In this document: positions 4,197 through 25,216 of the stretch, piece by piece
Layout of the letters: the number at the start of each line of letters is the position of its first letter
How positions within the stretch are numbered: the first letter of the stretch is position 1
Origin: an uncultured Actinomycetes bacterium
Lineage (GTDB): Bacteria > Actinomycetota > Thermoleophilia > RBG-16-64-13
Direction of reading: 5' to 3'
DNA: 64,000 nt
NCBI GenBank assembly: GCA_963841735.1
Contig: CAWJDT010000005.1
Location: 160,001-224,000, forward strand
Notes under the pieces: model-generated
What the model was told of the DNA's origin: nothing
Databases searched by the model: none
Seen by the model: only the letters and a program-made list of their open reading frames with translations
Program-made: the position numbers and the translations under genes

Positions 4197-4389
4197 CCTT
4201 GTGAGCGGGCCTGCGGCCGGCTTGGCTTGGCCACATGTACTAGTCTACTTCGGCGAAATCTAGGCCTCTTGGACAAAGCCTGAGCCACCCTGCGTTGCTA
4301 TGCTCAGCCCAAGTTCGTCGGAAGGCCGAGAAGCGTACCGAGCCGGCACACGAGACCAACACCGGCACAGCAGGGGTGATGGGAAGATC

Positions 4390-8500: not shown

Positions 8501-8513
8501 GAGCGAGCCGGCC

Positions 8514-9410
8514 TTGACCAGCCAGCAAGAGAGAACAGCGGTCCCCAACTCGGCGGTGGTGCGCAACGTGCCCACCGGCCCGGCGCGCAAAGGGCCCACC
8601 GGCATCGAACCGGCGCGCCTCACCGCCGGCCAGCCCGGCACCACGCGCGGCGCGGCCGCACGCAAGGGCAGGCGGTCGGTCATCGACAGCCGCGGGGTCT
8701 ACTACAAGACCTTGAACGAACAGATCCGCGAGGAGATCGAGCGGGGAGCCACCGAGGTGGTGCTCGACAACGTCATCGGCCAACGCTACATCGGCACCGG
8801 ACTGGCCTACCCGGGCGTCACGGTGACCATCAACGGAGTGCCGGGCAACGACCTGGCCGCGTTCATGAACGGCCCCACTCTGGTGGTCAACGAGAACGCT
8901 CAGGACGGAGTGGCCAACACCATGAACTCCGGCCTCGTGGTCATCAACGGCGACGCCGGCGACGTGATCGGCTACGGCATGCGAGGCGGGTCGGTGTACG
9001 TGCGGGGCGATGTGGGCTACCGCGTGGGAATCCATATGAAGGCCTTTGGCGACAGCCATCCCCTCCTCGTGGTGGGAGGCCATGCTCGAGACTTTCTGGG
9101 AGAATACATGGCCGGTGGAGAGATCGTCGTATTGGGCCTGGGCAAGGATGACGGCCCGATAGTGGGCTCCTACGTGGGCACCGGCATGCACGCCGGGGTC
9201 ATGTACATACGAGGAGAAGTGGCGGAGCATCAACTGGGCAAGGAAGTCCGCATGATGGAGCCGTCAGACGCCGACAGCGCCCGCATAGCCGAGATCGTCA
9301 CCGACTACTGCCGGTTGATGGACCTGGACCCGCAGGAGGTCATGCAGGAGCCGTTCGTCAAGATCTATCCCTATTCTTCGCGGCCGTACGGCCGCCTGTA
9401 CGTCTACTAG
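8514..9410 (+). CDS. Glutamate synthase GXGXG beta-helix subunit (GltB3/FwdC-like)
   Basis: Repeated [26 protein letters not shown] and [10 protein letters not shown]; ends [11 protein letters not shown]. Confidence 0.88.
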
Positions 9411-9441
9411 AGTGCGCACCCGCACCGGAAAGGAGCAAGGA

Positions 9442-10776
9442 GTGGCAGAGAAGTTGACCAAGGAGGATGTCCTTCGAATCGTGGAGGACAAGCAGATCAA
9501 GTTCGTGCGTTTCTGGTTCACCGACGTTCTGGGAACCCTGAAGAGCTTCGCAGTGACCCCCGCCGAGCTGGAGGGCGCTTTCGACGAGGGCATGGGCTTC
9601 GACGGCTCGTCGATCGAGGGATTTCACCCGCATCGAAGAATCCGACATGATCGCCTACCCCGATCCCAGCACTTTCTCGGTGCTGCCGTGGCGGGCCGGC
9701 GCCGGCGGCGCGGCGCGGATGTTCTGCGAGATCCGCACGCCCGACGGCAACCCCTTCCCCGGCGACCCGCGCAACGTGCTCAAGAAGGTCGTCGCCAGAG
9801 CCGAGGCCCTGGGCTACACCATGTATCGTGGGCCCGGAGCTCGAGTTCTTCTACTTCGAGGACAGCAACGGCACCAAGGTGCTCGACCATGGTGGCTACT
9901 TTGACCTCACCACTCTCGACGCCGGCAGCGACCTGCGCCGCGACACCATCAACGCCCTGCACGCCTTCGGCATCCAGGTCGAGTACTCCCACCACGAAGT
10001 GGCGCCCTCCCAGCACGAGATCGACCTGCGGTACAAAGACGTGCTGACCATGGCCGACAACGTCATGACCTACCGTCTCACCGTCAAGGAGATCGCCGCG
10101 CAGAAGGGCCTGTACGCCACCTTCATGCCCAAGCCCATGTACGGCGTGAACGGCTCGGGCATGCACGTGCACCAGTCGCTGTTCAAGGGCGACCGCAACG
10201 CCTTCTTCGACGCCAGCGACCCGTGCAGCCTGTCCCCGGTGGGCCGCTCCTACATCGCCGGCCTGCTGGCCCACGTCAAAGAGATCGCCCTGGTCACCAA
10301 CCAGTGGGTCAACTCCTACAAGCGCCTGGTGCCGGGCTACGAAGCGCCCGTGTACATCTGCTGGTCGCGCAGAAACCGCTCGGCCATGGTGCGCGTGCCT
10401 CTCTACAAACCGGGCAAGGAGAACGCCACCCGGGTAGAGCTCCGCAACCCCGACCCGGCCTGCAACCCCTATCTGGCCTTCGCCGCCATGCTCGCCGCCG
10501 GACTGGACGGCATCGAGAAGGGCATGGAGCTTCCCGCCGAGCAGGGCGACAACATCTTCGAGATGACCGAGGCCGAGCGCGAACGCGGCCGGCATCGACT
10601 CGCTTCCCGGAGACCTGAACGAGGCCATCAAGGAGTTCGAGAAGTCCAGCTTCGTGCGCGAGGCGCTGGGCGATCACGTCTGCGACTACCTCATCCGCAA
10701 CAAGGTGGCTGAGTGGAACGAGTACAAGATGCTCATCACCCCGTACGAGCTCGAACGCTATCTGCCCAACCTCTAG
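9442..10776 (+). CDS. glnA: Glutamine synthetase type I (alpha), frameshifted
   Basis: Contains FDGSSIEGF, IEESDM, GPELEF, HHEVAPSQHE, ATFMPKP, NGSGMH, KRLVPGYEAP, NRSAMVRVP and RVELRNPD. Confidence 0.93.
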
Positions 10777-10793
10777 ACAACGATCCCTCCTGT

Positions 10794-10829
10794 CCGCCCG
10801 GCGGTCTCCGACCGCCGGGCGGCTTCTCT
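10794..10829 (+). terminator. GC-rich hairpin after glnA
   Basis: CCGCCCGGCGGTC-TCC-GACCGCCGGGCGG forms a 13-bp perfect stem followed by CTTCTCT. Confidence 0.7.
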
Positions 10830-10879
10830 GTGCCGCAAGTCTGGTGCCTTGCCCGCCGCGCGTTCTTTGGAGGAGTCCT

Positions 10880-11391
10880 TTGGTAGAGACCCTGCCCGTG
10901 ACCGGCGCCCGAGCCGTCACGGCTTTTATATGCGCCAACTGTTCGCGACCCTGGCCGGCCAGTCTGACCCCACCGGCTTGGCGCCTGCCGCAGCCGCCGC
11001 TGTTCGAGTGGCCCGTTCCGGTGCGCGAAGTCCTGGTGCCTGCACCGGACGGCTACAGCCCGAGCACGTGCTCAAGGCGTTCGAGTCGGGCGCCGACCTG
11101 GTGCTCACCGTGTCGTGCGAGCAGGCTGACTGCCGGTACCTCCAGGGCAGCGAGCGCTGGAGCCGCCGCGCGGACTACGTGAGGGCCATCCTCGACGAGA
11201 TCGGGCTGGGCGGCAACCGCCTGATGCACTTCCAGCTGACGGGCGCGACAGGGGCAGACGCCGTCCGCGACGCGGTGCTGCTGGCCCTTGAGGGGCTAGC
11301 CCCCAATCCTTTGCACCGCGAGCTCCCGGTCGATGCAGCCGAGGAGGCCTACCAACAAGTGGAAACGAGCGAGGAAGAGAATGAAGACTGA
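10880..11391 (+). CDS. mvhD: MvhD/FlpD-like [2Fe-2S] hydrogenase delta subunit (divergent copy, frameshifted)
   Basis: FICANC...VPCTGRLQPEHVLKAFESGADLVLTVSCEQADCRYLQGS...ILDEIGLGGNRL, with a GGAGGA RBS before the TTG start. Confidence 0.8.
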
Positions 11392-12238
11392 CCTTGGCCA
11401 GGCCCTCAGCTCCGGGCGGCTGCTGCTCACCGCCGAGTGCGTGCCGCCGCGCAGCGGCGGCGCAGAGGCCGTCCGCGCCCTCTCGGCCGCGCTGGCCGCC
11501 GAACCTTGACGCCGTAGTGGTGGCGGACAATCCGGACGAGATCCACGGTTCGGCGCTGGCGTGCGCCGCTCTGCTGGCCCGAGAAGGGCCGCGAGGTCAT
11601 ATTGACCATGGCCACGCGCGACCGCAACCGGATCGCTCTGGAAAGCGACGCCCTGGGCGCCTCCACCTTGGGTGTCAAGGGCATTCTCTGCCTCAGCGGC
11701 CAGCACCAGTCGCTGGGTGTATGCCCCCAGGCCGCGGGCGCCAACGACATCGATTCCTTGCAGCTCACTCAGGCCCTGAAGGGGCTCGAGACTCCCGAAC
11801 CTGCTGCTGGCAGCGGTGGCCCACCCCTATCTGCGACCCCTCGAACTGAACCTGATCAGGCTCAAGAAGAAGATCGCCGCCGGCGCGGACCTCCTGTTCA
11901 CCCAGCCGGTGTTCGACTTCGACGCCTTCGCCTCCTGGATGGACGCCGTGCGGGCCGCCGGGCTCGAGGGCCGGGCCGCCATCATAGCGAGCGTGCTCCC
12001 CCTCACCAGCGTGGAGCAGGCCGAGTTGCTCCGGCAGCGGCAGACCTACGGACCTCTGGACGAAGCCGTGATCGCCCGCCTGAACGAAGCCTCCGACGCC
12101 GCCAAGGAAGGACTGGCCATAGCGGCCGAGATCGCCGGCCGGCTCAAGACGGTCCCCGGCGTCCGCGGCATCCATATCCTGTGTGGCGGCGCCGAAGCCC
12201 TCTCGGGCCAGGTCGTCCAGGCGGCGGGACTGGCGTAG
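11381..12238 (+). CDS. metF: Methylenetetrahydrofolate reductase-like protein (MetF family, divergent, frameshifted)
   Basis: Contains LTAECVPP, VVADNP, TRDRNRIALESD, GILCLSGQH, RLKKKIAAGADLLFTQPVFD and PGVRGIHI. Confidence 0.82.
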
Positions 12239-12249
12239 GTGAGCATGTC

Positions 12250-13693
12250 GTGCCCGACCGCTATCACATCCACACCGCCGCCACGGCTCCCCGATTCCAC
12301 CGGGTGGGCAAGTTCGGCAACGTCGACTGGCGCGAGGACTGCTCGCGCTGCACCAACTGCGTCAAGCTCCGCTGCCTCTACGACGTCTACAAGCACGAGG
12401 CCGCGTACAACCGCGACCCGCTCGTCTCGGTCGACACGCTCAACGAATGCAAGTCCTGCCTGTCGTGCGTCCAGGGCTGCACCAAAGGCCTGCTGAGCGT
12501 CTCGGTCAACCCCGAGTATCCTCGCCATGGGCGACGAATACTGGAAGCCCGACATCCTGCTCACCACCTGGAACCAGGCCGACAACGGCAAGAGTCCCCG
12601 TCTCGGGCGCCGGCTACCGCGGGCGCTTCCACGGCCCGGGCTTCGACTCCATCTGGACCGACATGTCGGAGATCGTCCGCCCCACCCGCGACGGCATCCA
12701 CGGACGCGAATACATCTCCACCTCGGTGGACATCGGCACCAAGCCTATGCGTCTGCAGCTTCGCCGCCGACGGCAGTCTGCTCACTCCGCCTTCGCGCCT
12801 TGTGGAGCTGCAGCTCCCGGCCGTCCTGGACATGCCGGGCTGGCCCGTGGAGAGTCGCGACCTCTGGCCGCGGCCCGGGCAGAGGCGGCCGCGCAGCTGA
12901 AGACCCTGGCGGTGATGACGGCCGCCGAGGCCTCCCTGGTGCCGGCCGAGCTACTCGCGTCGGTGCGTGCCCCTGGTCAGCGAAACCGAAGCCGAGAGCC
13001 ACGGGCAGCTGCTCGACCAAGTGCGTCATGGCCCAGATCGCCGATCGCCGGCCACGGCCGGCCGGGCGACCTTGCCCGCAAGTTGCAGGCACGCCCACCC
13101 GCGGTTGCTGGTCGCCGTCCGCATGGAACTCCGCCCCAACAGTGCCGACCGCATCATCGAACTGAGCCGGCAGGGCATCGGGGTCTTCCAGTTGTGCGCC
13201 GACCTGCACGGGCGCGAGCGCCTGGAGAACGGCAGGCGCCGGCCGGCACATCAAGGACGCTATGCGCGAAGTCCACGGCCGGCTGGTCACGGCGGGCCTG
13301 CGCGACGAGGTGACGTCTGATCGTCTCCGGCGGCATCGCGCTGGCCGAGCACATGGCCAAGGCCATCATCTGCGGGGCCGACCTCGTGGCGGTGGACACA
13401 CCGCTCCTGGTCGCCCTGGGCTGCCGCGTCTGCGGTGGCGGCGGCGACTGCGACTCGGGCACGCGACTGCCCGGTGGACATCGGTTCGGCTCGATGCCGA
13501 CTACGCCGTCCACAGGATGGTGAATCTGATGGGCGCGTGGCACAGCCAGCTCATCGAGGTGCTCGGGGCTATGGGCATCCGCGAAGTCCGCCGCCTGCGG
13601 GGCGAAGTGGGACGAGCCATCTTCATGGAAGACATCGAGAAGGAGGCCTTCGGCGATCTCGCCCACGTGCCTCAGACTGAGGTGCACGCATGA
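12250..13693 (+). CDS. Glutamate-synthase-related FMN-barrel protein with N-terminal ferredoxin, degenerate barrel (frameshifted)
   Basis: CSRCTNCVKLRC and CKSCLSCVQGC; VSGAGYRG, GFDSIWTDMSEIVRPTRDGIHGREYI; SGGIALAEHMAKAIICGAD; MGIREVRRLRGEVGR. Confidence 0.75.
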
Positions 13694-15342
13694 CCACCGA
13701 CACAGCGATCCGCCCCGAAACCCCGGCTGAGGCCCCGGCTGCGGCTGCCGGCCGACGCGCCGCCGAGATCGCGGGCAACAGCGATTGGCCGCAAGGAGCA
13801 GGTGGAGCGCGCGAGTCCAGCCGGCCCCCGATCGCTACCGCAACGTCCTCGGCAAGTACAAGATCGACCGTCTGGCCCGCTGCCAGTCCTGCGGGCACTG
13901 CGTGGAGGTCTGCCAGTACGGCGTGCACGTCAAGCCCGAAGGCTACGCGTTCACCCTGCGCCCGCAGGACCACCTCTGCATCGGCCCCGAGTGCGCCGAG
14001 AGCGACAAGTCCTGCATCGCCCAGTGCCCGCAGAAGGCCCTCGTCCTGCGCCCCAACCCCAGTGCCGAGTGCATGGGCGATCCGCGCTGGCCGAGCGATC
14101 TGATCCTCTCCACCTGGCATCAGGCCGCCACCGGGCATGCCGCGCCGCCGCATCTCGAAGGCCGGTTCGGCGCCTCGGGCGGCGGGTTCGACCGGCTGCG
14201 CTTCAAGTTCGAACTGCCCGAGATCTTCGGCGAGGGTCCCGACAAGCTGGCGCCCACCGGTCGAGGCCGCGTCCCCGACCGACGCGGCCGACATCGACAC
14301 CAGCCTGGATCTCAACCACGAGCGACGACGGCCGGCCGCAGGTGCACATCGACATCCCCGTGTACGGCGGCGGCATGAGCTTCGGCTCGGTGAGCATCCA
14401 CACCATCCTCGCCAAGGCCCGCGCGGCCGACGGCCTGGAACAGCTTCACCTGCACCGGCGAGGGCGGCTATCACGACCGCCTCCGGCCCTACGACGACCA
14501 CGTGATCACCCAGGTGGCCACCGGGCTCTTCGGCGTGCGCGAGGAGACCATCCAGCGGGTGCGCATCGTGGAGTTCAAGTACGCCCAGGGCGCCAAGCCC
14601 GGTCTGGGCGGCCACCTCTTGGGCGACAAGAACACTCCCCCGGTGGCCCGCATGCGCGAGGCCGTGGCCGGCAACGCGCTGTTCAGCCCCTTCCCCTTCC
14701 ACAGCGTCTACAGCGTCGAGGACCACAAGAAGCACCTCGACTGGATCAAGGAGATCAACCCCGACTGCCTGGTGAGCGTGAAGGTCTCCACCCCCACCGA
14801 CGTCGACATGGTCGCCGTGGGCAGCTACTACGCCGGGGCGCACATCGTCCACCTGGACGGCAGCTACGGCGGCACCGGCGCGGCGCCCGACATCGCCAAG
14901 AAGAACATCGCCATGCCCATCGAGTACGCCATCCCCAAGGTGCACAAGTTCCTGGTGGCCGAGGGCATCCGCGACCAGATCACGCTCATCGCCTCGGGCG
15001 GCGTCCGCACGGCGCTACGACGCGCTGAAGGCCATCGCCCTGGGCGCCGACGGCGTGGTCATCGGCACCGCCGAGATGGTGGCCCTGGGCTGCGTCCGCT
15101 GCGCCTGCTGCGAGAGCGGCCGCGGCTGCCCGCGCGGCATCGCCACCACCGACCCCGAACTGGTGGCGCAGATGAGCATGGAGTGGGCCACGCAGCGCCT
15201 CATCAACCTCCAGAACGCCTGGCGGGAGCAGATGCTGGCCGTGCTGGCGCGCCTGGGCATGAAGTCCATCCGCGAGCTGCGAGGCCGCAGCGACGTGCTC
15301 TGCTACCTCGACGAGCGAGCACGGCTCCGGCCGGGGAGGTGA
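13690..15342 (+). CDS. Glutamate synthase FMN-binding subunit with N-terminal ferredoxin (frameshifted)
   Basis: CQSCGHCVEVC; GGGMSFGSVS, TGEGG, QVATGLFGV, EFKYAQGAKPGLGGHL, LDGSYGGTGAAP, ASGG; CVRCACCESGRGCPRGIATTDP. Confidence 0.85.
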
Positions 15343-15347
15343 GCGTC

Positions 15348-17972
15348 GTGAGCGATCTTCGCCGAACGCCTACTGGCCGCCCGCTCGCAGGTCTACACCG
15401 GCCCGAGACCGGCCGGCTCCGACCCTGTCGAGGAGGGCGGCTGCGGAGTCACCGGCTTCGCCTGCACCGTGCCGGTGAAGGGGCGCCACATCTACGAGCC
15501 CTCCAAGCAGATGCAGAACCGCGGCAACGGCAAGGGCGGCGGCATCGCCGCCGCGGGCCTGGTGCCCGAGCAGCTGGGCATCTCCGCCGACATGCTCGAG
15601 AGCCACTACCTGCTGCAGATCGCCCTGCTCGACCCCGACTGCCACGCCGAGTTGGAGCGGCAGTTCGTGCTGCCCCACTTCGACGTCGCCCTGTCCACCC
15701 GGCAGCCCCACATCGACGACTATCGCGACATCGGGCCTGGAGGTCCGGCCGCCCGACGTGCACCGCTACGTGGTGCGCGCCAAACCGAGCGCCCTCAAGG
15801 CCTTCGCCGAAGCGGCCGGGCTGCAGGACCTGGAGCCGCGCGCGCTCGAAGACGAGTTCGTGTGGCGCAACTCGTACGCAGCTCAACGACGCCTACTACG
15901 CCTCGCTCGGCGAGAAACGCGCCTTCGTGCTGTCGCACTCGCGCAACCTGCTCATCTTCAAGACTGGTGGGCTACGCCGAGCAGAACGTGGAGTACTACC
16001 AGCTGCAGGACTTCAGCGCCCACGTGTGGATCGCCCATCAGCGCTATCCGACCAAGGGCCGCGTGTGGCACCCGGGTGGCGCCCACCCCTTCGTGGGCAT
16101 GAACGAGGCCCTGGTGCACAACGGCGACTTCGCCAACTACCACTCGGTCAGCGAGTACCTGCGCCAGCGCAACATCCGGCAGCAGTTCCTCACCGACACC
16201 GAGGTCTCGGTGCAGCTCTTCGACCTGTGGGACCGTGTCTATCGACTATCCGCTGGAGTACATCATCGAGGCGCTGGCCCCCACCACCGAGCTGGACTTC
16301 GACCAGTTGCCGCCCGAGAAGCAGGCCATCTACCGAGAGATCCAGGCCACCCACATCCACGCCTCGCCCGACGGGCCCTGGTTCTTCATCATCGCCCGCA
16401 GCCAGGGCGACCGCTTCCAGCTCATGGGCATCACCGACACGGCCATGCTGCGGCCGCAGGTCTTCGCGCTCTCCGACAGCGGCGAGGTCCAGATCGGCCT
16501 CATCTGCTCCGAGAAGCAGGCCATCGACGCGACCCTGCGCAGCCTCGCCGAGGAAGACCCGCGCTTCTGCCCGGTGGCCGACAAGTACTGGAACGCGCGC
16601 GGCGGCTCGTCCACCGACGGGGGCGCCTTCATCTTCACCGTGGCGCCGGAATGGTGACGCCGGCCAGCATGCGGCTCTCCTGCACCGACAAGTTCGGCCG
16701 CGAGGTCACCTGCAGCGCCGGCTCGGTGCGCTGCGACCTGCCCGCTCGATGTCAACGACTCGTCGGACGCGGCTGCCCCGTCGAGCTCTTCAGCGCCGAC
16801 GAGGTGCAGGAGAAGCTCCGCAGAGGCGACCTCGACGCCCTCTTCGCCTCGGTGCGAGACATCGGCTCCTGGCCGGCCGACCAGCTGCGCCGCTTCTGCC
16901 AGTACGTGCTGGCCGCGGCCGACGACCCCAAGACGTGCCTGTCGGCCATCGATCCTGCTCACCGATCTGCACGACCGCCGCTTCGCGACCGGCGACAAGC
17001 GGCGCGCGACCGTGGTCCGCGTCCTCGAAGACGCCCTCGACCAGTTGTTCGACACCGCTCCGCTCTTCGGCGAGCCGGGCAATCGCTTCTGGCGACGGAT
17101 CAACTGGGACACCCGCGATCGTCTGCAGGCCCCGCAGGCCGGCGAAGAGCTGCTCTGCATCGACAGCCAGGGCTTCCCGCCCGAAGGCGACGACTGCGAC
17201 GCGGTGCTCATGCGCGAGGCCTACAAGCTGGGCTGGAAGCACTTCTGCGTCTATCGCCTGCGCGGCCAGCGCTTCCATGGCGTGGGTCTGGGCGCGGCCA
17301 CCGACGGCGTGCGCATCGACCTCTACGGCTCCAACGGCGACTACACCGCCAGCGGCATGGACGGCCTCGAGATGCACATCCACGGCAACGCCCAGGACCA
17401 GGTGGCTCAGATCGCCAAGCGCGGCAAGCTGGTCATCTACGGCGACGTCGGGCAGACCTTCATGTACGGCGCCAAGGGCGGTGAGGTCTTCATCCTGGGC
17501 AACGGGGCGGGCCGGCCGCTCATCAACGCGGTGGGACGGCCGCGGGTGGTCATCAACGGCACCTGTCTGGACTTCCTGGCGGAGTCGTTCATGGCCGGCG
17601 ACCCCCTGAACGGCGGCGGCTTCGTGATCCTGAACGGCGTCGAGTTCGACGACGACGGCGAGCATCGTCCCCCAGGCGACTCCCTACCCGGGCAGCAACC
17701 TGTTCTCGCTGGCCAGCGGCGGCGCCATCTACATCCGCGACCCTCACAACAAGGTGGTCGAGCGGCAGCTCAACGGCGGGGTGTTCTCGCCCCTGGACGA
17801 CAAGGACTGGCGCCTCATCCGCGGCTACCTGGAAGAGAACGAGCGTCTCTTCGGCATCAAAGTGCAGGACCTCCTGACGGTGGATGGCCAGGTCCGGGCC
17901 CCGCAGGATGTCTATCGCAAGGTCAGCGCGGTCACGCTGTCGGTGCTGGCCGGATCGGAGAAGAAGAAATGA
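15348..17972 (+). CDS. Fused class II glutamine amidotransferase + GXGXG domain glutamate-synthase-like subunit (frameshifted)
   Basis: EEGGCGVTG, NRGNGKGGG, AHQRYPTKG...GGAHPF, VHNGDFANY, TDTE, DTAMLRPQ, then GDVGQTFMYGAKGG and DFLAESFMAG. Confidence 0.8.
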
Positions 17973-17978
17973 CCCCCG

Positions 17979-18538
17979 GTGACCATAGAGATCAACACCA
18001 TCGGCGGGAGCCTGGCCGACGAGCTCAAGGCGCTGACCGGCGTCTCCCCCATGAGCTGCTACCAGTGCACCAAGTGCTCCAGCGGCTGCCCCGTGGCCGG
18101 CCGCGGCGATCTGCGGTCGCACGAGCTGGTGCGGCTGGTGCAGATGGACCAGCGCGAGGCGGTACTCTCCAGCCGCTTCATCTGGGAGTGCACCTCTTGC
18201 CATACCTGCGTCACCCGCTGCCCGCAGAAGGTGGACATCTGCGCCATGAACGACGCGCTCCGCGCTCTCAGCGTCAAAGAGGGACTGGCGACGCCGAGCA
18301 CGGCCGTGCCGGTGTTCAACGACGCGTTCCTGGCGAGCGTCCGCAAGCGCGGGCGCGTGCACGAGTTGGGCCTGATGGCGGCCTTCAAGCTGCGTACCCG
18401 GCGCTTCTTCGAAGACGTCGACAAGGCCCCCATGATGCTGTCCAAGGGCAAGCTGTCGCTGTTCGGCGACCGGGTCGCTGGGCGCAGCGAGCGCGAGAAG
18501 CTCTTCAGCCGGGCGAGCAAAGGCGGTGCGAGCGATGA
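17979..18538 (+). CDS. hdrC: Heterodisulfide reductase subunit C-like
   Basis: [12 protein letters not shown] and [15 protein letters not shown]; [17 protein letters not shown] overlap with hdrB. Confidence 0.88.
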
Positions 18539-19403
18539 AATACACGTTCTACCCTGGCTGTTCGCTGGAAGGCACCGCCAAGGACTTCCACAGTCTCAAC
18601 GCTGGCGGTGGCGGCCGGGCTGGGGCTCGAGCTGGCCGAGATGCAGGACTGGATCTGCTGCGGCTCCACTGCCGCCCACAACAGCAATCCACTCCTGGCC
18701 GACGCCCTGCCGGCGCAGAACCTGCGCGCGGCCGAGGGCCAACCGGTCGCGGTGGCCTGTGCCGCCTGCTACAGCCGCCTCAAGATGGCCAACCACCACA
18801 TCGCCGGCCGACGACAACCGTGCGCGCCAAGGTCGCCGAAGTGGTGGGCGGCGACTACGACGGACTCACCCCGGTGCGGCACCTGCTGGAGATCCTGGGC
18901 CAGGACATGGCGCGAGAAGACATCGCCGCGAAGATCCGCCAGCCCCTGACCGGGCTCAAGGTGGCCTGCTACTACGGCTGCCTGCTGTCGCGTCCGCCGG
19001 AGATAACGCAGTTCGACGACGCCGAGAACCCCACTCTCATGGACAAGCTCCTGGAGACGGCCGGGGCCACCCCCGTCGACTGGCCGCACAAGACCGAGTG
19101 CTGCGGCGCCAGCTTCTCCATCACCGATGCGAGCATCGTGCTCGAGCTGAGCGACAAGATCCTCGCTATGGCGCAGGCCGCCGGCGTGGACTGCATCGCC
19201 ACCGCCTGCCCGCTCTGCCAGCTCAACCTGGACATGAGGCAAAAGGACATCGAGACCAAGTACGGGCGCCGCTACGGCCTGCCCGTGTTCTACTTCACGC
19301 AACTGCTGGGCCTGGCCCTGGGCTGTTCGCCGAGCGAGGTGTCGCTCGACAGCCTGATAGTCGATCCACGAGAGTTGCTCCGATCCAAAGGATCTGCTCG
19401 TGA
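18535..19403 (+). CDS. hdrB: Heterodisulfide reductase subunit B-like (frameshifted)
   Basis: [49 protein letters not shown] and [12 protein letters not shown]. Confidence 0.9.
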
Positions 19404-19416
19404 ACGAGGCGGGACG

Positions 19417-22400
19417 ATGAGCACTAGCAACGGTAACAACGGAAACGGAAACGGCGACCCCGTGGCCCCGGTCGCCACCCCGGAAGCCCTCGGCGCCGCG
19501 CCTGAGGCTGTGGGCGCTGCGCCTGAGGCTGTGGGCGCTGTCCTGGTCTGCGGCGCCGGCATCACCGGCATCCAGGCTTCGCTCGACCTGGCCGAGAGTG
19601 GCTTCAAGGTCTACTTGGTGGACTCCTCGCCCGCTATCGGCGGCAGGATGGCCCAACTCGACAAGACCTTCCCCACCGGCGACTGCGCCATGTGCATCAT
19701 CTCGCCCAAGCTGGTCGAGGTGCGCCCGCAACAAGAACATCGAGATCATCACGCTGGCCGACATCCAAGGCATCTCGGGTGAGCCGGGCAACTTCAAGGT
19801 GAAGCTGCGCCAGAACCCGCGCTACATCGACCTGGCCAAGTGCAACGCCTGCGGCGACTGCAACCTGGCCTGCCCGGTGGACCTGCCCAGCGAGTTCGAC
19901 CGCAACCTGGGTACGCGCAAGGCGGTGTTCCGCCCCTACCCACAGGCCATTCCCAACGTGTTCGGCATCTCCAAGGCCGAGGGCAAGGCGCCCTGCAAGG
20001 CCGCCTGCCCCGCCGGCGTGAATGCCCAGGGCTACGTGGCCCTCATCGGCGCCTCGCAAGTTCAAGGAAGCCTACGAGCTGGTGCGCGAGCGTTGCCCTC
20101 TCCCCTCTGCGTGCGGGCGCGTCTGCCAGCATCCCTGTGAGGACGAGTGCAACCGTAGCGACATCGACCAGCCGGTGTCCATCCGTGATCTCAAGCGGTT
20201 TGCCGGCGACTACGTCATGAACAACCCCGAGGGCTGTCCCCCGGTCGCGACCCTCGTCGCCAAACTTGATAGCAAGGTCGCCGTTATCGGTGGTGGCCCC
20301 GCCGGTCTGACCGCGGCCTACGATCTGGCCCAACTGGGCTACGGAGTGACCTTGTTCGAGGCCCAGCCGCATCTGGGCGGCATGCTGCGCTACGGCATCC
20401 CCGGCTATCGCCTGCCCAAGGACGTCCTTGAGCGGGAGATCCAGTCGATCCTCGACCTGGGCATCGAAGCCAAGACGGGCACCAAGGTGTCCGATCCCAA
20501 GAGCCTGCTCGACTCGGGGTTCAAAGCCGTGTTCGCGGCCCCAGGCGCGTGGATCGGCCGCAAGCTGGGCGTGCCCGGCGAAGAAGCCTCGGGCGTGCGG
20601 ACGGGTCTGGAGTTTCTCCGCCAAGTGAACAGCGGCGAGACGCCCGCTCTCGGCGCGAAGGTGTTGGTCATCGGCGGCGGCGACGTCGCCATGGACGCGG
20701 CCCGCTGCGCTCTGCGCATGCCCGGCGTCAACTCGGTGCACCTGGCCTGCCTGGAGAGCCGCGCAGAGATGCCGGCCCACTCCTGGGAAGCGGCCGAGGC
20801 GCTTGAGGAAGGCGTGGTGTTCCACAACAGCCTCGGCCCGACGAGCATCGAGACCGGCGGCGACAAGGTCACGGGCGTAGCCTTCAGAGCCTGCACCAGC
20901 GTGTTCAACGACGAGGGCAAGTTCGCTCCCCAGTTCGACGATGCCAAGACGGAGCTTCTGCCCGCCGACACGGTCATCGTGACCATCGGCCAAGGCATCG
21001 ACGCCGCCGGACTCGGCGTAGCCACCGGCCCCGGCGGGCGCATCACAGCCGACAAAGACACCCTTGCCACCGACGTCGCCCGGCGTGTTCGCCGGCGGCG
21101 ATGCCGTGCTGGGCCCGGCCTCCATGGTCGACGCCATGGCCCAGGGCCACAAGGCCGCTGAGGCCATCGACGCGTACATACGAGGCGTCAAGCTGCCCCA
21201 GTCCCCGGCTTCGGCCGAGGCAGAAGCGGAGACTGGCCAAGAACCCCCGGCCCGACGCTCCCCGCGCGGACCGCGTCAAGATGCCCCAGACCGAAGCGGC
21301 CACGCGGGTGGCCGGCTTCGTCGAGATCGACCAGGGCTACAGCGTCGAACAAGCCGTGGCCGAAGCCCAGCGCTGCCTGGACTGTGGTCTTTGCAGCGAG
21401 TGCATGCAATGCGTCAAGGCCTGCACCGCCGGCGCCGTCTGCCACGACCAGCTGTCCAGAAGAGATCGAGATCGCCGCCGGTAGCGTGATCCTCACCCCC
21501 GGTTTCGAGGAGTTCCAGCCGGCTCTCCGTGGCGAGTTCGGCCACGGTCGCTACGCCAACGTGCTTTCGAGCGTCCAGTTCGAGCGCATGCTCTCGGCTG
21601 CGGGTCCCACCGGCGGCCACGTGGAGCGGCCTTCGGACGGCGGCGAGGTCAGAACGCGTCGGCTTCATCCAGTGCGTGGGCAGTCGTGATACCGCCCGCG
21701 GCAACGGCTACTGCTCGTCCATCTGCTGCATGAGCGCCACCAAAGAGGCGATGATCGCCATCGAACACGCTCACGGCCAGCACGACGTCGACGCCACCAT
21801 CTTCTGCATGGATGTCCGCGCGTTCGGCAAGGAGTTCGACGCCTACGTCAACCGGGCCCGCGACGAGAACGGTGTGAAGTACATCCGGGCGATTCCCTCC
21901 CGCGTGGTCGAGATGCCCGGCAGCAAGAACCCGCGAGTGCGCTACTTCGACCAGGACGGCGTCGAGCAGCAACCAGGAGTTCGACCTAGTGGTTCTGAGC
22001 GTGGGCATGCAGGTTCCGGCCAGCGTGCGCGAGACGGCCGGCAAGCTAGGCGTCGATCTAAACGAGTTCGGCTTCGCCCAGACCGAGCGGCTGGCCCCAC
22101 TGGCCACCACCAAGCCCGGCCTGTATGTGGCCGGAGCCTTCCAGGAACCCAAGGACATCCCCGAGTCGGTGGCCCAGGCCTCCGCGGCCGCGGCGTGCGC
22201 CATGGACCAGTTGGCCGAGGCGCGTGGAAATCTCATAACGCGCCGCGAGTACCCGTGGGAGCGTGACACCACCGACGAACCGCCCCGGGTAGGCGTGTTC
22301 ATCTGCCACTGCGGACAGAACATCGCCTCGGTCATCGATGTGAAGCACGTGGCCCAAGAGGCCACCAAGCTGCCCAACGTCTTCCATGCCGAAGCGAGTC

Positions 22401-23972
22401 TCTACACCTGCTCCGACACCACCCAGCAGCACATCAAGGACATGATCAAGGAGCACCGGCTCAACCGGCTGGTGGTGGCCTCCTGCACACCGCGCACACA
22501 CGAGGTCCTCTTCCAGGAGACGCTGCGCGACAGCGGACTCAACCAATACCTGTTCTCTATGGCCAACATCCGCGACCAGGGGTCATGGGTGCACAAGAAC
22601 GAACCCGTGGCGGCCACCGAGAAGGCCATAGACCTCATGGCCATGGCGGTAGCGCGCGCCCGGCACCTCAAGGCCCTGCAGACCGGCCAACTGCCGGTGA
22701 CGGCTTCGGCGCTCGTGTTGGGCGGCGGGCTGGCCGGCATGACGGCGGCGCTCGGCATCGCCGACCAGGGCTTCCAAGTGCACCTGGTCGAGAAGGAACC
22801 GGTGCTTGGCGGCCTCATGAGCCAGATCCACAGCACCCTGGAGGGCACCGACGTAGAGTCGTTCCGCGCCGCACTGGTGGACAAGGTGCAGACCCATCCG
22901 CTGGTGGACGTCTACCTGAACACCACCCTTGCCCGCATCACCGGGCACATCGGCCACTTCGAGAGCGTGCTTGACGGTGGAGGGGAGTGAGCAGCCGGTG
23001 CACCACGGAGTCATCATCGTGGCCACGGGCGGCCAGGAACGCACCACCGAGCTCTACCTGCACGGCAAGAACCCGCACGTCACCACCCAGAGCAAACTCG
23101 AGGCGCAACTGGCCGCCGGTGAGCTTCCAGCCGAGCTGCAGGGCAGGACCGACCCCACCGTGGTGATGATCCAGTGCGTCGAGAGCCGCAACGACGAGCA
23201 TCCCTACTGCAGCCGGGTGTGCTGCTCGGAGGCGGTCAAGAACGCGCTCGACATCAAGCGCAGGCTCCCCGGCGCCAACGTGGCGGTGCTGGGCCGGGAC
23301 ATCCGCACCTATGGTTTCCGCGAGCTCTTCTTCCAGCAGGCTCGGGAAGAGGGGATCATGTTCGTCCGCTACCCGGAGAAGAACGACCCTGTAGTGGCCG
23401 AGCAAGACGGCCGGCTCCAGGTGACTGTGCACGACGCCTCCAGCAACCGTGACCTGGTGCTGCGGCCCGACTTGCTGGTGCTCTCCACCGGCATCGCCCC
23501 GGCTACGAACAACCCGGTACTGTCTGGCCAACTGCGCAGCGCCCTTACGTCCGACGGCTTCTTCCTAGAGGCGCATCCCAAGCTCCGCCCGGTCGACCTG
23601 GCCAACGAGGGCGAGTACATCTGCGGGCTCTCCCACTCCCCCCGCTTCATGGACGAGACCATCGCCCAGGCCATGGCGGCGGTGGGCCGCGCCACTACGG
23701 TGCTCTCCAAAACACATCTGGAGATCCCCGGCCAGGTGGCCCAGGTGGACCCAACAGACTGCGTGGCCTGCGCCACCTGTGTGAAGACCTGCCCCTACGG
23801 AGCCCCCATGATCAACGAACTGGGCAAGGCTGAGATCCAAGTAGCCCTGTGCATGGGTTGCGGCAGCTGTGCCGCGTCCTGCCCGGCCCGCACCATCACC
23901 CTGCTTCATCAAGAAGACCAGGCGTTGGTGGCCATGCTGGACGAACTGCTGGTGGAAGGAGCGAGGCTATGA
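19417..23972 (+). CDS. hdrA: Large modular HdrA (HdrL-type): HdrA with an inserted GltD/NfnB-like NAD(P)H oxidoreductase plus a second HdrA module (frameshifted)
   Basis: GAGITG...[13 protein letters not shown]; [35 protein letters not shown]; IQCVGSRD...YCSSICC; [29 protein letters not shown]; C-terminal [12 protein letters not shown] and [12 protein letters not shown]. Confidence 0.88.
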
Positions 23973-24481
23973 CCCAGGCCACCACCCCAATGACGCCCTC
24001 GGAGACAACGGAGGCCACCACGGCGGCGACGCCCGCGGCGGCCGCTTGGGAGCCCCAGATCATCGCGTTCTGCTGCAACTACTGCGCCTATGCGGCGGCC
24101 GACCTGGCCGGATCAAAGCGTATGCAATACCCGGCCAACGTGCGGATCATCCACGCGCCCTGCACCGGCAAGATCGAGATGGAGCACATTCTTGACGCCT
24201 TCCTAAAGGGTATCGATGGCATCCTGGTGGCCGGTTGCCTGGAAGGTGGGTGTCACTTCATGGAGGGCAACCTCCGGGCGCGCAAGCGCACCGACCGCAT
24301 CCGCGAGATGTTGGCCGAGGTAGGCGTCGGCGAGGAGAGGCTCAAGATGGTCAACCTGTCGGCCGCCGAGGCTCCCACCTTTGTGAGGAGCGTACAGGAG
24401 ATGGTGAACACGGTCAGAGCGTTGGGACCGAGCCCTCTCAGGAGCTCGAACGAGTCTCAGACGTTGGAAAGCGAAGGTTAA
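23969..24481 (+). CDS. mvhD: MvhD/FlpD [2Fe-2S] subunit
   Basis: AFCCNYCAYAAADLAG...PCTGK...GCLEGGCHFMEGN...ERLKMVNLSAAE. Confidence 0.92.
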   Translation: MTQATTPMTPSETTEATTAATPAAAAWEPQIIAFCCNYCAYAAADLAGSKRMQYPANVRIIHAPCTGKIEMEHILDAFLKGIDGILVAGCLEGGCHFMEGNLRARKRTDRIREMLAEVGVGEERLKMVNLSAAEAPTFVRSVQEMVNTVRALGPSPLRSSNESQTLESEG

Positions 24482-24483
24482 GA

Positions 24484-25152
24484 ATGATTGTTGCTTCTCC
24501 CAAATCGATCACCGAGCTGAGGAACCTCATCTCGGGCCACAAGCGCGTGCTCTTCGCCGGCTGTGGCACTTGTGTCACAGTCTGCCTGGCCGGTGGCGAG
24601 CGTGAGGTGGGATTAGCCTCATACGCCATCCGCATGGCGCGCAAACTCGAAGGAGAGCCACTCGAACTCACCCAGATGACCATCGAGCGCCAGTGCGAGA
24701 ACGAGTTCATCAAAGACCTGGCCGAAGCGGCCGCCAAAGTCGACGCCATCGTCTCGTTCGGGTGCGGTGTGGGCGTGCAGGCCGTGGCCGAGAGCTTCCC
24801 CGAGAAGCCGGTCTATGCCGCCCTCAACACTCAGTTCATGGGCACTCTCGAGGAGCAGGCCGTCTGGGCCGAGAAGTGCCTGGGCTGCGGCGATTGCATG
24901 TTGGCGCAGTTCGGCGGGGTCTGCCCGGTGACGCGCTGCGCCAAGCGGCTCTTGAACGGTCCCTGCGGTGGTTCCACCGAGGACCATTGTGAAGTGGACG
25001 AAGACCGTCCCTGCGCCTGGCAGCTCATCTACACGCGCCTCAAGAACATCGAGCAGTTGGACCGGCTTGATGAGGTCGTTCCCGCCAAGGATTGGAGCAC
25101 CTCCTGGCACTCCGGAGCGCGCAAAGTGGTACGCAAAGAACACCGGGTGTAG
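24484..25152 (+). CDS. metV: MetV (MTHFR small Fe-S/Zn subunit, MTHFR_C domain)
   Basis: GCGTCVTVCLAGGE, RQCE, GCGVGVQ, CLGCGDC, GGVCPVTRCAKRLLNGPCGG and PCAWQLIY. Confidence 0.88.
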   Translation: MIVASPKSITELRNLISGHKRVLFAGCGTCVTVCLAGGEREVGLASYAIRMARKLEGEPLELTQMTIERQCENEFIKDLAEAAAKVDAIVSFGCGVGVQAVAESFPEKPVYAALNTQFMGTLEEQAVWAEKCLGCGDCMLAQFGGVCPVTRCAKRLLNGPCGGSTEDHCEVDEDRPCAWQLIYTRLKNIEQLDRLDEVVPAKDWSTSWHSGARKVVRKEHRV

Positions 25153-25178: not shown

Positions 25179-25216
25179 GGGGGCTCGGTCCCACTCGGGG
25201 CCGGGCCCTCTTCTTT
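25179..25216 (+). terminator. Rho-independent terminator of the Hdr/Met/Glt operon
   Basis: GGGCTCGGTCCC-ACTC-GGGGCCGGGCCC stem (two G-U pairs) followed by TCTTCTTT. Confidence 0.75.

Follow-up and report, generated by a model that had tools for sequence, protein, structure and literature searches.

An operon in which glutamate-synthase genes lie between metF and metV and are accompanied by hdrCBA and mvhD genes

The window, a 64,000-nucleotide stretch of DNA from an uncultured Actinomycetes bacterium, contains ten genes on the forward strand between 10880 and 25152, in the order mvhD'-metF'-FMNa-FMNb-GATase/GXGXG-hdrC-hdrB-hdrA(L)-mvhD-metV. Glutamate synthase is the enzyme that brings nitrogen into amino acids, and Hdr/Mvh/Met-type electron-handling proteins are known from methanogens and acetogens. 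Here we confirm that the region is one real, conserved operon, with a full glutamate-synthase domain set enclosed between metF and metV and accompanied by hdrCBA and mvhD. The gene order and domain content put forward in the sequence-only reading are borne out by Pfam searches on stop-to-stop pieces of the window and are found intact in a relative, G019. From 5' to 3', the pieces matched FlpD (10777-11388), MTHFR (11780-12235), Fer4 followed by Glu_synthase (13731-15339), GATase_6 and GXGXG (15352-18535), Fer4_8 (from 17973), two CCG domains (18436-19779), Fer4_20, Pyr_redox_2, FAD sites and Fer4 (19421-23969), a second FlpD (23834-24478) and MTHFR_C/DUF5981 (24196-25149).

The operon starts at a TTG codon (10880), 4 nt 3' of a GGAGGAG ribosome-binding site, and ends with the metV stop (25152). 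It is flanked by two strong terminator-like hairpins on the same strand, one with a 13-bp stem just 3' of glnA (10794-10822, the upstream boundary) and one with a 14-bp stem (25179-25210, the downstream boundary); a scan of the window found 18 such sites, versus 7.5 +/- 3.0 in shuffled sequence, and these two were the strongest. The hairpins had been noted at both ends, and the tight coupling of the genes noted with them also holds, as read in the intact G019 copy: overlaps range from 4 nt (FMNa/FMNb, ATGA) to 26 nt (mvhD1/metF), and gaps do not exceed 14 nt. A search of the sequence preceding the operon here revealed neither a sigma-54 promoter nor any other nitrogen-control signal.

The first gene, mvhD1 (mvhD' above; 10880-11391), encodes an MvhD/FlpD-like [2Fe-2S] adaptor, recognized by its Pfam FlpD match, by tblastn to G019 and by a CTGR motif in the window, and cysteines 29, 65, 90 and 95 (G019 numbering) are kept in 18/18 sequences. 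The next gene, metF' (11363-12238), encodes an MTHFR fold according to Pfam and PDB alignment. Beyond the glutamate-synthase genes lie hdrC (17979-18538), a 2x[4Fe-4S] ferredoxin-like Fer4_8 protein with CxxCxxCxxxC motifs at 18066 and 18198, and hdrB (18535 to approximately 19430), with two Pfam CCG domains and CCG motifs at 18644 and 19087; the ten CCG-motif cysteines of HdrB are kept in all 26 orthologues. The hdrA gene (approximately 19468 to 23972), assigned from Pfam, NCBIfam and motifs, encodes an HdrL-type protein of some 1500 aa, in which a GltD/NfnB-like module comprising 2x4Fe-4S, an FAD site and an NAD(P)H site is inserted into a double HdrA. Its sites are readable in the window as GAGITG (19552), GGGPAG (20289), GGGDVA (20673) and GGGLAG (22721). 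The operon HdrAs contain the GltD-like insert and its FAD site in 21/21 cases, and a second dinucleotide site was found in 19/21 and in the window; this site is variable, with YRR in G019 and CLE in the window, and the donor could therefore be NADH or NADPH. A full FlpD domain (164 bits; also tblastn) identifies mvhD2 (23849-24481), whose frame is open from 23849 with a probable start near 23969, right behind the hdrA stop. Four of its five G019 cysteines (C58, C87, C112, C117) are kept in 36/36 orthologues, and the fifth, C61, in 20/20 Hdr-type sequences versus 1/16 others. The last gene, metV (24484-25152), an MTHFR_C/DUF5981 Fe-S protein by Pfam, is intact in the window, 88.7% identical to G019 over 222 aa, and retains 13 cysteines in 52/52 orthologues.

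The glutamate-synthase part consists of three genes. FMNa (12250-13693) is a degenerate twin of the glutamate-synthase FMN subunit, with many frame changes, a 2x CxxCxxCxxxC region at the N terminus, a cluster of Cys at the C terminus and the motif WTDMSEIVRPTRDGIHGRE at 12654; it lacks the KxxQGAKPGxGG and GGTGA motifs. It had no Pfam match in the window, and its intact G019 orthologue matched Glu_synthase over the C-terminal half (60 bits). FMNb (13690-15342) is the catalytic FMN subunit, with an N-terminal ferredoxin-like domain, motifs at 14577, 14868 and 15085, and Glu_synthase scores of 184 + 70 bits in the window and 299 bits in G019. KxxQGAKPGxGG and GGTGA[AS]P occur in 53/53 FMNb and in 0/54 stand-alone FMNa sequences; in eight loci the two are fused into a single protein. 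The third gene (15349-17972) encodes a class II GATase/GXGXG fusion (Pfam GATase_6 and GXGXG; window motifs at 15436 and 16114) in which the Cys nucleophile sits after an N-terminal leader, and orthologues keep GGCGV in 70/71 cases and HNG in 71/71. All of these glutamate-synthase motifs are readable in the window as well.

Most of the operon genes have no intact reading frame in the window. Small indels occur at about 10952, 11002 and 11039 in mvhD1, and the frame changes at about 11502, 11586 and 11811 in metF' and at about 19723, 20056, 21078, 21196, 21459, 21650, 21970 and 22976 in hdrA. Nucleotide alignment to the G019 operon (77.6% identity) gave 51 gap runs that are not multiples of three, none of them 3' of 22976; in 39 the window has one extra base, which is G/C in 32 cases and stands outside homopolymers in 29. 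Some 39 frame-disrupting insertions within 12 kb, mostly outside homopolymers, in a genome only 89.7% complete and with a second glutamate synthase directly upstream, could be taken as real breaks in a decaying array of pseudogenes. We consider this highly improbable, however: all 39 single-base differences are insertions and none is a deletion, GC3 follows the coding frame through every shift, and the catalytic motifs are all readable, unmutated, in one frame or another. The adjoining upstream glutamate synthase and glnA are frame-broken too, and breaks of this kind recur in other few-contig relatives but not in the intact G019. Short-read contigs from four runs in four studies, 90-99% alike and possibly derived from relatives or from the source sample, have one base fewer at 8 of 10 distinct listed indel sites, within 4 nt. 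Based on the intact G019 operon and these contigs, the roughly 39 breaks are most likely assembly errors and not gene decay, although this is short of proof.

The combination of genes is widespread. Among 80 loci fetched as the best 80 of 540 species-level matches to the GATase/GXGXG protein, and spanning about nine submitter-labelled phyla, 65 had usable flanks (15 were too short). It had been asked whether glt-like and hdr/met genes are syntenic elsewhere; this proved to be the rule, not the exception, with the glutamate-synthase genes linked to MetF/MetV and/or Hdr in 61/65 loci and to MvhD in 64/65. Within these best 80 of 540, 29 loci have Hdr and MetF, and another 3 have Hdr but are cut on the upstream side; MetFV without Hdr occurs in 25, and 4 more have MetF(V) but are cut on the downstream side; 3 have MvhD alone and 1 has none. 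Hdr-type loci carry seven submitter phylum labels, and in shorter versions, which have no Hdr, these glutamate-synthase genes adjoin either MvhD-MetVF or just MvhD. The FMNa paralogue was always present beside FMNb in the loci compared; glnA, which immediately precedes the operon in the window, occurs within the flanks of 8/80. Our literature searches found no paper that describes the operon.

What is new here is a contrast in the folate-site triad of MetF (E28/D120/Q183), which is intact in 25/27 Hdr-less operons versus 6/28 Hdr-type operons. In the window the triad reads E/Q/Q, with Gln at the position of the E. coli pterin-binding Asp120, and because of this the MetF' encoded here is probably non-catalytic. 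Other Hdr-type MetFs have N, A, Y, T, S, L or R at position 120 (N in G001, G012, G019 and G023), and the accessible part of one study reports that E. coli MetF D120N has 0.3% of kcat left and a folate Km raised more than 40-fold (PMC11094777). Of 62 MetF columns that are at least 90% conserved in Hdr-less and WL-type sequences, 24 are still so in the Hdr clade. The folate site of Hdr-type MetF' thus appears to be lost, and this decay accompanies the HdrL module. The Hdr-type MetFs all fall into one clade (SH-aLRT 96), so the link between Hdr and a degraded MetF counts as one evolutionary event; at least six changes of triad state occur on the tree, and an independent-pairs test yielded two pairs only. 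Redundancy alone fails to explain the decay, since Hdr-less genomes also possess separate hdrA-mvhD-metVF clusters and still keep the triad in the operon MetF. E/D/Q is kept in those 6/28 Hdr-type MetFs and in a second, partial copy (G000:C2), and folate chemistry may persist in some of them.

These observations bear on two alternative readings of the operon. In one, folate C1 redox would be tied to glutamate synthesis within the complex, with methyl-THF oxidised at MetF to supply electrons to the synthase, or with a ferredoxin-fed MetV shared by MetF and the synthase. The presence of MetF/MetV with these genes in 61/65 loci fits such coupling, as do the Hdr-less operons, where the pterin-binding Asp and the other triad residues are kept in 25/27 despite other MetFs in the same genomes and the MetFs interleave with WL-type MetFs on the tree. 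On rough redox values, methyl-THF, at about -200 mV, could reduce the 2-oxoglutarate/glutamine couple. Yet nitrogen assimilation would be tied stoichiometrically to methyl-THF with no obvious physiological logic, and the degraded site, here and across the Hdr-type clade, makes a folate link unlikely for Hdr-type operons. The earlier suggestion of an enzyme joining C1-folate redox to amine/glutamate chemistry is consequently not supported for this operon type, and we judge folate coupling as a whole to be unlikely.

The other reading is that an archaeal-type split glutamate synthase is merely co-transcribed with an independent enzyme, a methylene-THF reductase of the Moorella MetFV-HdrCBA-MvhD type. 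The operon does encode the full six-subunit Moorella set, and other genomes contain hdrA-mvhD-metV-metF clusters without glutamate-synthase genes. Against this, metF and metV enclose the glutamate-synthase genes from opposite ends in the 29 Hdr and MetF loci, the Hdr-less versions keep MvhD-MetVF or MvhD alone by the same genes, and the triad is degraded in the window as in 22/28 Hdr-type operons, which speaks against a functional reductase of the Moorella type. It had been noted that the window contains no Wood-Ljungdahl gene, which is correct for the window, but CdhC, FTHFS and a separate metV-metF pair lie on another contig of the genome; that pair adjoins FTHFS and serves the Wood-Ljungdahl pathway. 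Two separate enzymes are accordingly unlikely.

Directly upstream of the operon (5890-10776, forward strand) lie an archaeal-type glutamate synthase, 5890-9407, and glnA. The former comprises GATase, 2x4Fe-4S and FMN domains (5890-8514, with a frame change near 8075) and a GXGXG protein (8484-9407); glnA (9412-10776) has one frame change and matches NCBIfam GlnA type I with 347 bits on its C-terminal piece. A conventional split enzyme at this position had been recognized and is confirmed, but it does not show a different role for the operon. The operon FMNb is the only strong Glu_synthase domain in 5/6 Hdr-less genomes examined, and the module is therefore a working glutamate synthase there. 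Each of the five Hdr-type genomes examined, among them this one, has a further glutamate synthase, and the complex is therefore not needed for basic assimilation in them. The module might instead use another amide donor or 2-oxo acid, or catalyse an N-methylglutamate-synthase-like reaction: no scanned operon protein passes a curated cut-off of NCBIfam, the GATase domain has diverged (GATase_6 scores about 30 bits, with no GATase_2 match at the thresholds used), and FMNa carries a strongly conserved motif with no assigned role. We regard this as very improbable, given that GltS substrate and FMN motifs are kept in 53/53 FMNb, that FMNb aligns with A. brasilense GltS (183 bits over residues 857-1172, including the three 3Fe-4S cysteines), that the neighbour is a type I GlnA and not a GmaS-like ligase, and that this is the only GltS-type enzyme in those 5/6 genomes.

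We favour, with modest confidence, a single complex, as gene order suggests: a glutamine-dependent glutamate synthase, possibly electron-bifurcating, that receives electrons from NAD(P)H by way of the GltD-like insert in HdrL, with MetF' and FMNa non-catalytic. The GATase/GXGXG protein would release ammonia from glutamine and FMNb would make glutamate from 2-oxoglutarate at its FMN, with FMNa as a non-catalytic, Fe-S-bearing twin. An Hdr-type module of HdrL, HdrC, HdrB, two MvhD and MetV would supply electrons in place of a free GltD, and MetF' would most likely be a scaffold or flavin carrier that no longer reduces methylene-THF. In the path we infer, NAD(P)H enters at the GltD-like FAD and electrons pass through Fe-S clusters to the HdrA FAD, then to MvhD and the FMNa clusters, and on to the FMNb cluster and FMN to reduce 2-iminoglutarate. 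Strongly exergonic glutamate formation could drive ferredoxin reduction at HdrA by flavin-based bifurcation; the flavin-bifurcating or confurcating synthase first suggested stays a live reading in its bifurcating version, bifurcation itself being conjectural. In methanogen HdrB, CCG cluster motifs form the disulfide-reducing site. HdrB keeps both motifs here, and a thiol/disulfide substrate may be part of the reaction, which the one-complex model does not explain.

The operon shares with A. brasilense GltBD (PDB 1ea0, 2vdc, 6s6s) a class II amidotransferase whose N-terminal Cys is preceded by a leader, an FMN domain carrying KxxQGAKPGxGG and three cluster cysteines, a GXGXG domain and a GltD-type NAD(P)H/FAD/2x[4Fe-4S] unit. 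It differs in that the alpha subunit is split in three (FMNa, FMNb and the GATase-GXGXG fusion), a degenerate FMN twin replaces the central domain, the GltD unit is an insert in a 1500-aa HdrA, and HdrBC, two MvhD, MetV and MetF' are extra. Archaeal-type split glutamate synthases have a separate GATase, a ferredoxin-fused FMN subunit and a GXGXG protein. Like these, including the upstream copy, the operon has split subunits and a 2x[4Fe-4S] ferredoxin-like domain before the FMN domain; unlike them, it has a GATase-GXGXG fusion, a second, non-catalytic FMN paralogue and attached MvhD/MetV/Hdr genes. Moorella thermoacetica MetFV-HdrCBA-MvhD, a methylene-THF reductase according to the portions consulted of later accounts (Mock et al. 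2014 via PMC7325909, PMC9012536, PMC6085437), has the same six protein families and a double-type HdrA, and a WL-type HdrA relative in G045 matches operon HdrA residues 18-182 and 656-1507. In the operon, by contrast, metF and metV are 12 kb apart with glutamate-synthase genes embedded, HdrA has the GltD-like insert and the MetF triad is degraded. Published HdrL, in the passages available, is likewise a large HdrA into which a GltD/NfnB-like NAD(P)H module has been inserted; those passages describe no link to GltB-type genes, whereas the operon HdrL sits with a complete glutamate-synthase set. The F420-dependent glutamate synthase candidates (FGltS) outlined in the accessible part of PMC9012536 use FrhB-type F420 input where the operon has Hdr/MvhD/MetV, and offer a precedent for the exchange of the electron-input module in glutamate synthases.

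The operon at 10880-25152 of the window (+ strand) is real and conserved, and is best read as encoding a glutamate synthase whose Hdr-type electron module is undescribed. Pfam searches of stop-to-stop pieces of the window returned, in order along the + strand, FlpD (MvhD), MTHFR, Fer4, Glu_synthase, GATase_6, GXGXG, Fer4_8 (HdrC-like), two CCG domains (HdrB), a long HdrA-like stretch, a full FlpD and MTHFR_C (MetV), with no Pfam match for the gltFMN(a) piece (hereafter FMNa; its paralogue is FMNb). The HdrA-like stretch carries Fer4_20 and Pyr_redox_2, a GltD/NfnB-like unit, together with more FAD and Fer4 sites. The operon starts at a TTG codon (10880) four bases 3' of GGAGGAG and ends at the metV stop (25152); it lies between two strong hairpins, one with a 13-bp stem just 3' of glnA (10794-10822) and another with a 14-bp stem (25179-25210). 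A DNA search of 40 relatives found the 14-kb block in seven genomes of the same genus or family at 71-82% identity. In the relative G019 (9 contigs, 100% complete) the ten genes are intact and overlap by 4-26 nt or are separated by gaps of at most 14 nt. The operon order, domain content and terminal hairpins of the sequence-only reading are thus borne out, as is its tight gene coupling, which is read in G019.

The window copy itself is frame-broken. The G+C content is 63-70% across the operon region, which has many spurious ORFs, and in a GC3 plot the coding frame switches every few hundred bases from 5 kb to 23 kb. Alignment with the G019 operon (77.6% identity) contains 51 gap runs with a length not divisible by three, 39 of which are single extra bases in the window, 32 of them G or C and 29 outside homopolymers. 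All 39 single-base differences are insertions relative to G019, and none falls after 22976, where the downstream genes look intact; as an error profile, this one (10880-22976) is odd. The upstream glutamate synthase and glnA are likewise frame-broken. The breaks could reflect real gene decay, to which we give a small probability. Contigs from four public runs (four studies), 90-99% alike, have one base fewer at eight of the ten distinct indel sites in the list, all eight no more than 4 nt away from an insertion deduced by comparison with G019, and the catalytic motifs of the operon are all still readable. The source genome, G000, is a long-read metagenome-assembled genome (8 contigs, 89.7% complete), and we read the frame breaks as assembly errors and the window copy as a noisy version of an intact operon. 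In a wetland metatranscriptome (run X24), 1047 contigs match window 10777-25152, 143 of them at least 99% alike, a weak hint at transcription of this operon or a close relative, with DNA carry-over or relatives as possible sources; in the public sequencing-run search the share of sampled words exceeded 0.10 in none of the runs, and we claim neither a habitat nor a strain.

The GATase/GXGXG fusion has at least 7663 database relatives at E <= 0.001 (8000 candidates scored), or 1322 representatives at 50% clustering, and a one-genome-per-species scan confirmed 540 relatives. Synteny was classified by tblastn with the ten G019 proteins on the best 80 of these 540 loci; picked by likeness to one operon protein, they yield counts that describe the GATase/GXGXG family and not glutamate synthases at large. 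Hdr genes with MetF (ten genes, or eight without hdrBC) occur in 29 loci, and MetFV without Hdr, ordered mvhD-metV-metF-FMNa-FMNb-GAT or mvhD-FMNa-FMNb-GAT-metV-metF, in 25. Hdr was seen in three loci cut on the upstream side and MetF(V) in four cut on the downstream side; three loci have MvhD only, one has none of Hdr, MetFV and MvhD, and in 15 the flanks are too short. The association of glt-like with hdr/met genes, on which the earlier proposal turned, therefore recurs elsewhere. Submitter labels assign the loci to Acidobacteriota, Planctomycetota, Myxococcota, Chloroflexota, Thermodesulfobacteriota, Actinomycetota and other phyla, and the constant core is MvhD, FMNa, FMNb and GATase/GXGXG.

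Protein anatomy was read mainly from the G019 orthologues. The GATase/GXGXG fusion (867 aa) has the motifs of a class II (Ntn) amidotransferase with a catalytic N-terminal Cys: GGCGV follows a leader of ~30-50 residues in 70 of 71 orthologues, HNG is kept in 71 of 71, and the window reads EEGGCGVTG at 15436. The leader is probably cleaved. The C-terminal beta-helix (GXGXG) domain is present (Pfam, 46 bits for G019 and 35 for the window). FMNb (544 aa from an ATGA-coupled start) consists of a ferredoxin-like domain followed by a full GltS FMN domain (Pfam Glu_synthase, 299 bits in G019; 183 bits to residues 857-1172 of A. brasilense GltS, 2vdc), and its KxAQGAKPG motif and three 3Fe-4S cysteines align with GltS. 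The GltS substrate and FMN motifs are found in 53 of 53 FMNb orthologues and can be read in the window as well. The central domain of the GltS alpha subunit is sub-threshold inside FMNb (Glu_syn_central, 20.6 bits against a cut-off of 22.8), and in its place FMNa is present.

FMNa (474 aa in G019) has two N-terminal CxxCxxCxxxC motifs and keeps the C-terminal Cys cluster motif, while its Glu_synthase barrel is recognisable in the C-terminal half only (60 bits in G019; 22 bits to GltS in the PDB comparison). The GltS catalytic motifs are absent from all 54 stand-alone FMNa proteins. FMNa is nevertheless the best conserved of the three proteins aligned, with 65% mean column identity across phyla and an invariant WTDMSEIVRPTRDGIHGRE block. 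In eight loci (L034, L035, L049, L053, L060, L061, L070 and L072), with submitter labels mostly of Planctomycetota, FMNa and FMNb form a single fused protein of 920-993 aa, which supports their working as a pair. NCBIfam curated cut-offs were reached by none of the scanned operon proteins. A reading as N-methylglutamate synthase (MgsABC/GmaS) was set aside, as the scanned operon proteins gave no such NCBIfam match and the adjoining ligase, considered as a GmaS-type neighbour, best fits type I GlnA (347 bits on a partial piece). Outside the window, three relatives of the GATase/GXGXG protein (P0153, P0171 and P0205) are single giant proteins of 2526-3152 aa that fuse a GlcD-like FAD-linked oxidase (FAD_binding_4 and FAD-oxidase_C), a Glu_synthase FMN domain and the GATase/GXGXG region, one of them with Fe-S domains; they may represent a 2-hydroxyacid dehydrogenase directly feeding a glutamate synthase.

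HdrB has both Cx31-39CCx32-34CxxC motifs (CCG, non-cubane cluster), the ten CCG-motif cysteines being kept in 26 of 26 sequences, HdrC is a Fer4_8 protein with 2x[4Fe-4S], and HdrA carries FAD and Fe-S sites, so the structural features of HdrABC are all present; scores fall below the NCBIfam cut-offs for both HdrB (182 against 345) and HdrA (922 against 1100). MvhD1 (202 aa) and MvhD2 (a 194-aa ORF in G019, with a probable start at residue 41) are both FlpD proteins with invariant cysteines. MetV (222 aa in G019) has 13 invariant cysteines; it has no sequence relative in the PDB, where a designed repeat protein was the sole weak match. HdrA (1510 aa in G019) begins with an FAD site (GAGITG29) and a Fer4 domain, continues with a GltD-like unit at residues 173-572 that has GGGPAG270 for FAD and GGGDVA401 for NAD(P)H, and ends with a second HdrA half (GGGLAG1095) and a C-terminal 2x[4Fe-4S] domain. 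After the second dinucleotide motif of the insert, YRR is found in G019, L022, L025, L027, L030 and L033, and CLE followed by S, K, Q, G or N in the window (~20673) and most others (loci L013-L079). Given this variation the HdrA donor could be NADH or NADPH, and the pattern suggests that the preference may have switched within one operon family. A complex prediction for FMNa, MetF' and MvhD1 from G019 (24-row alignments) scored 0.49, 0.00 and 0.00 in its runs, values that speak neither for binding nor against it.

Every Fe-S ligand checked is invariant, in contrast with the active site of MetF. MetF' (290 aa in G019) has the MTHFR fold and is distant from E. coli MetF (35 bits); a protein homologue search with it returned close, generically named relatives only, and no named acetogen MetF. 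We aligned 56 operon MetFs with E. coli MetF and seven non-operon MetFs of the same genomes, three of the seven coming from hdrA-mvhD-metV-metF clusters without glutamate-synthase genes. In the E. coli enzyme, according to PMC11094777, E28 is the catalytic acid, D120 makes a bidentate bond to the pterin and Q183 is the third residue; E28Q leaves ~0.01% activity, D120N cuts kcat to 0.3% with a more than 40-fold higher Km for folate, and changes at Q183 raise Km more than 250-fold. The E/D/Q triad is intact in 25 of 27 operon MetFs without Hdr, the exceptions being one alignment gap and L091, a locus with its downstream flank cut that sits in the Hdr clade, but in only 6 of 28 Hdr-type operons. 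Here position 120 is replaced by N, A, Y, T, S, L or R, position 183 by D, H, S or R, and E28 by A in three. The window MetF' reads ...ILCLSGQHQSLG..., with Gln at position 120 (triad E/Q/Q), while G001, G012, G019 and G023 have Asn there (G019 triad E/N/Q). Wood-Ljungdahl-type MetFs from hdrA-mvhD-metVF clusters keep E/D/Q, and the D120 equivalence was reproduced independently by phmmer.

Of the 62 columns at least 90% conserved in Hdr-less and Wood-Ljungdahl-type MetFs, only 24 still reach that level in the Hdr clade. Among those that have decayed are E. coli positions 59, 61, 88, 120, 181, 219, 223, 226-228 and 276-277, several of which we take to line the flavin and folate site. All Hdr-type MetFs fall in one clade (SH-aLRT 96), Hdr-less operon MetFs interleave with Wood-Ljungdahl-type MetFs, and the triad state changes at least six times on the tree. 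Since Hdr was gained once on this tree, its association with a degraded MetF counts as one event; for an independent-pairs test of the two, no more than 2 pairs were available. The replacements are varied enough to show that selection no longer maintains the folate site in the Hdr clade. Coupling of folate C1 redox to glutamate chemistry, one of two options in the sequence-only reading, is thus unlikely for the Hdr-type operon. It is plausible for the Hdr-less relatives, where the conserved pterin-binding Asp suggests that folate may be a real substrate of the complex.

The source genome has three MTHFR-type genes: metF' of the window, one in a partial operon head on contig C2 and one in a metV-metF pair on contig C1. 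The C1 pair has an intact triad and lies ~2 kb from FTHFS, with CdhC on the same contig (C1:1317009), so that the genome has Wood-Ljungdahl genes with their own reductase. The stretch G000:C1:1419777-1428073, partly covered by locus L100, holds FTHFS, GltD-like genes and the metV-metF pair. On C2 (9.4 kb) the partial head, mvhD1-metF-FMNa, is on the minus strand (L101:32-2263) and is cut off where the contig begins. The MetF it encodes shares 72% identity with G019 MetF across residues 4-174, with Asp at position 120. This copy could belong to a paralogous operon or to a second strain in the bin (contamination 2.3%).

Glu_synthase domains in the source genome are those of FMNa, FMNb, an upstream archaeal-type enzyme and one weak match, and a second glutamate synthase is also present in the Hdr-type genomes G019, G023, G041 and G043. 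Of six Hdr-less genomes, five, namely G042 (a complete chromosome) and G045-G048, have no Glu_synthase match above ~50 bits other than FMNb of the operon (completeness is not given for G044-G048), which indicates that the module serves these relatives as a working, even sole, glutamate synthase. Directly upstream of the operon (5890-10776) lie the archaeal-type enzyme (GATase, 2x4Fe-4S and FMN, then GXGXG) and type I glnA, and one glutamine synthetase is thereby flanked by two glutamate-synthase systems. This context is not conserved at the DNA level in the 12 best fetched loci, and glutamine synthetase occurs within the flanks of 8 of 80 loci only. Upstream of the glutamate-synthase genes, 3651-4737 holds a BPD_transp_2 fragment (branched-chain amino-acid/urea-type ABC permease) and a separate CCG-domain protein; downstream on the same strand, 25325-28695 encodes a GAF-PAS protein and a PAS-HisKA-HATPase-receiver hybrid sensor kinase. 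Scanning for the sigma-54 consensus TGGCAC-N5-TTGCA gave a best site of 7/11 positions in the window and no candidate in G019, and sites of at least 10/11 in only 3 of 55 loci (L026, L042 and L043) against 2 of 3000 control windows; with so weak a result we make no claim of nitrogen control for the window operon.

The complete and conserved glutamate-synthase motifs, the conserved Fe-S chain, the GltD-type module inside HdrA and the MetF site pattern can be read directly. We infer that the operon encodes a single complex. NAD(P)H would, in the Hdr type, enter at the GltD-like unit of the HdrL-type HdrA, a unit that naturally partners GltB-type FMN subunits, and electrons would reach FMNb through the Fe-S carriers MvhD and FMNa, perhaps also MetV and HdrBC. 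The HdrA flavin may bifurcate: NAD(P)H electrons would be split there, and strongly exergonic reduction of 2-iminoglutarate would pay for reduction of ferredoxin. Glutamate synthesis with NADPH releases roughly 45-50 kJ/mol by our approximate values, which suffices to drive another pair of electrons from NAD(P)H onto ferredoxin. For the Hdr-less form, the donor may be methyl-THF; alternatively, MetV may feed electrons to MetF as a second acceptor. The ancestor would have been a smaller MvhD-MetVF-glutamate-synthase enzyme with electron entry at the MetF folate site; once HdrL took over electron entry, MetF would have decayed to a pseudoenzyme, in parallel with FMNa, the dead twin of the FMN subunit. 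The role of the conserved HdrB cluster sites would lie outside what this model explains. The sequence-only reading had also raised a bifurcating glutamate synthase, an idea that stands as an inference; a flavin-based bifurcating enzyme with HdrL input and ferredoxin reduction, evolved from an MvhD-MetVF enzyme and with MetF now a pseudoenzyme, is a tentative proposal, one we consider rather doubtful.

Nitrogen enters biomass chiefly through glutamate synthase, for which the electron donors known to us are ferredoxin, NAD(P)H by way of GltD and, putatively, F420. The Hdr/MvhD/MetV wiring suggests another means of powering the enzyme, perhaps an energy-saving one, in uncultured anaerobes from soils, peat, wetlands and sediments; if the bifurcating reading is true, anaerobes would conserve energy as they assimilate nitrogen. 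The contrast in the MetF folate site, which persists in the absence of Hdr and is lost in its presence, offers a testable handle on the electron-entry subunit in each form. For annotation, a 'metF' in these operons should not be taken to imply a folate reductase or Wood-Ljungdahl capacity. To our knowledge, the Moorella-type MetFV-Hdr complex is still without a known second electron partner.

Among known systems, published accounts cover MetFV-HdrABC-MvhD clusters of acetogens, Actinobacteria and 'Ca. Syntrophoarchaeum' (PMC7325909, PMC9012536, PMC6085437), HdrL as an HdrA/GltD fusion (PMC2702500), a type III HdrA with a GltD insert (PMC12054007) and candidate F420-linked glutamate synthases (PMC9012536). 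In them we found no link of GltB-type genes to Hdr, MvhD or MetFV, although supplement tables of PMC7325909, PMC2702500 and PMC9012536 could list such clusters, and the phrase 'electron-bifurcating glutamate synthase' was not found in the literature searched. With GltS the operon shares the class II amidotransferase, an FMN domain with substrate motifs and three cluster cysteines, and GXGXG, and it differs in the central domain. With the Moorella-type MetFV-HdrABC-MvhD reductase it shares all six subunit families, encoded together (Pfam), but it lacks that enzyme's MetF with intact catalytic and folate residues: the triad is degraded to E/Q/Q in the window and complete in 6 of 28 Hdr-type operons. 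It differs further in that metF' (11363-12238) and metV (24484-25152) are not adjacent, and the same split is found in 29 loci.
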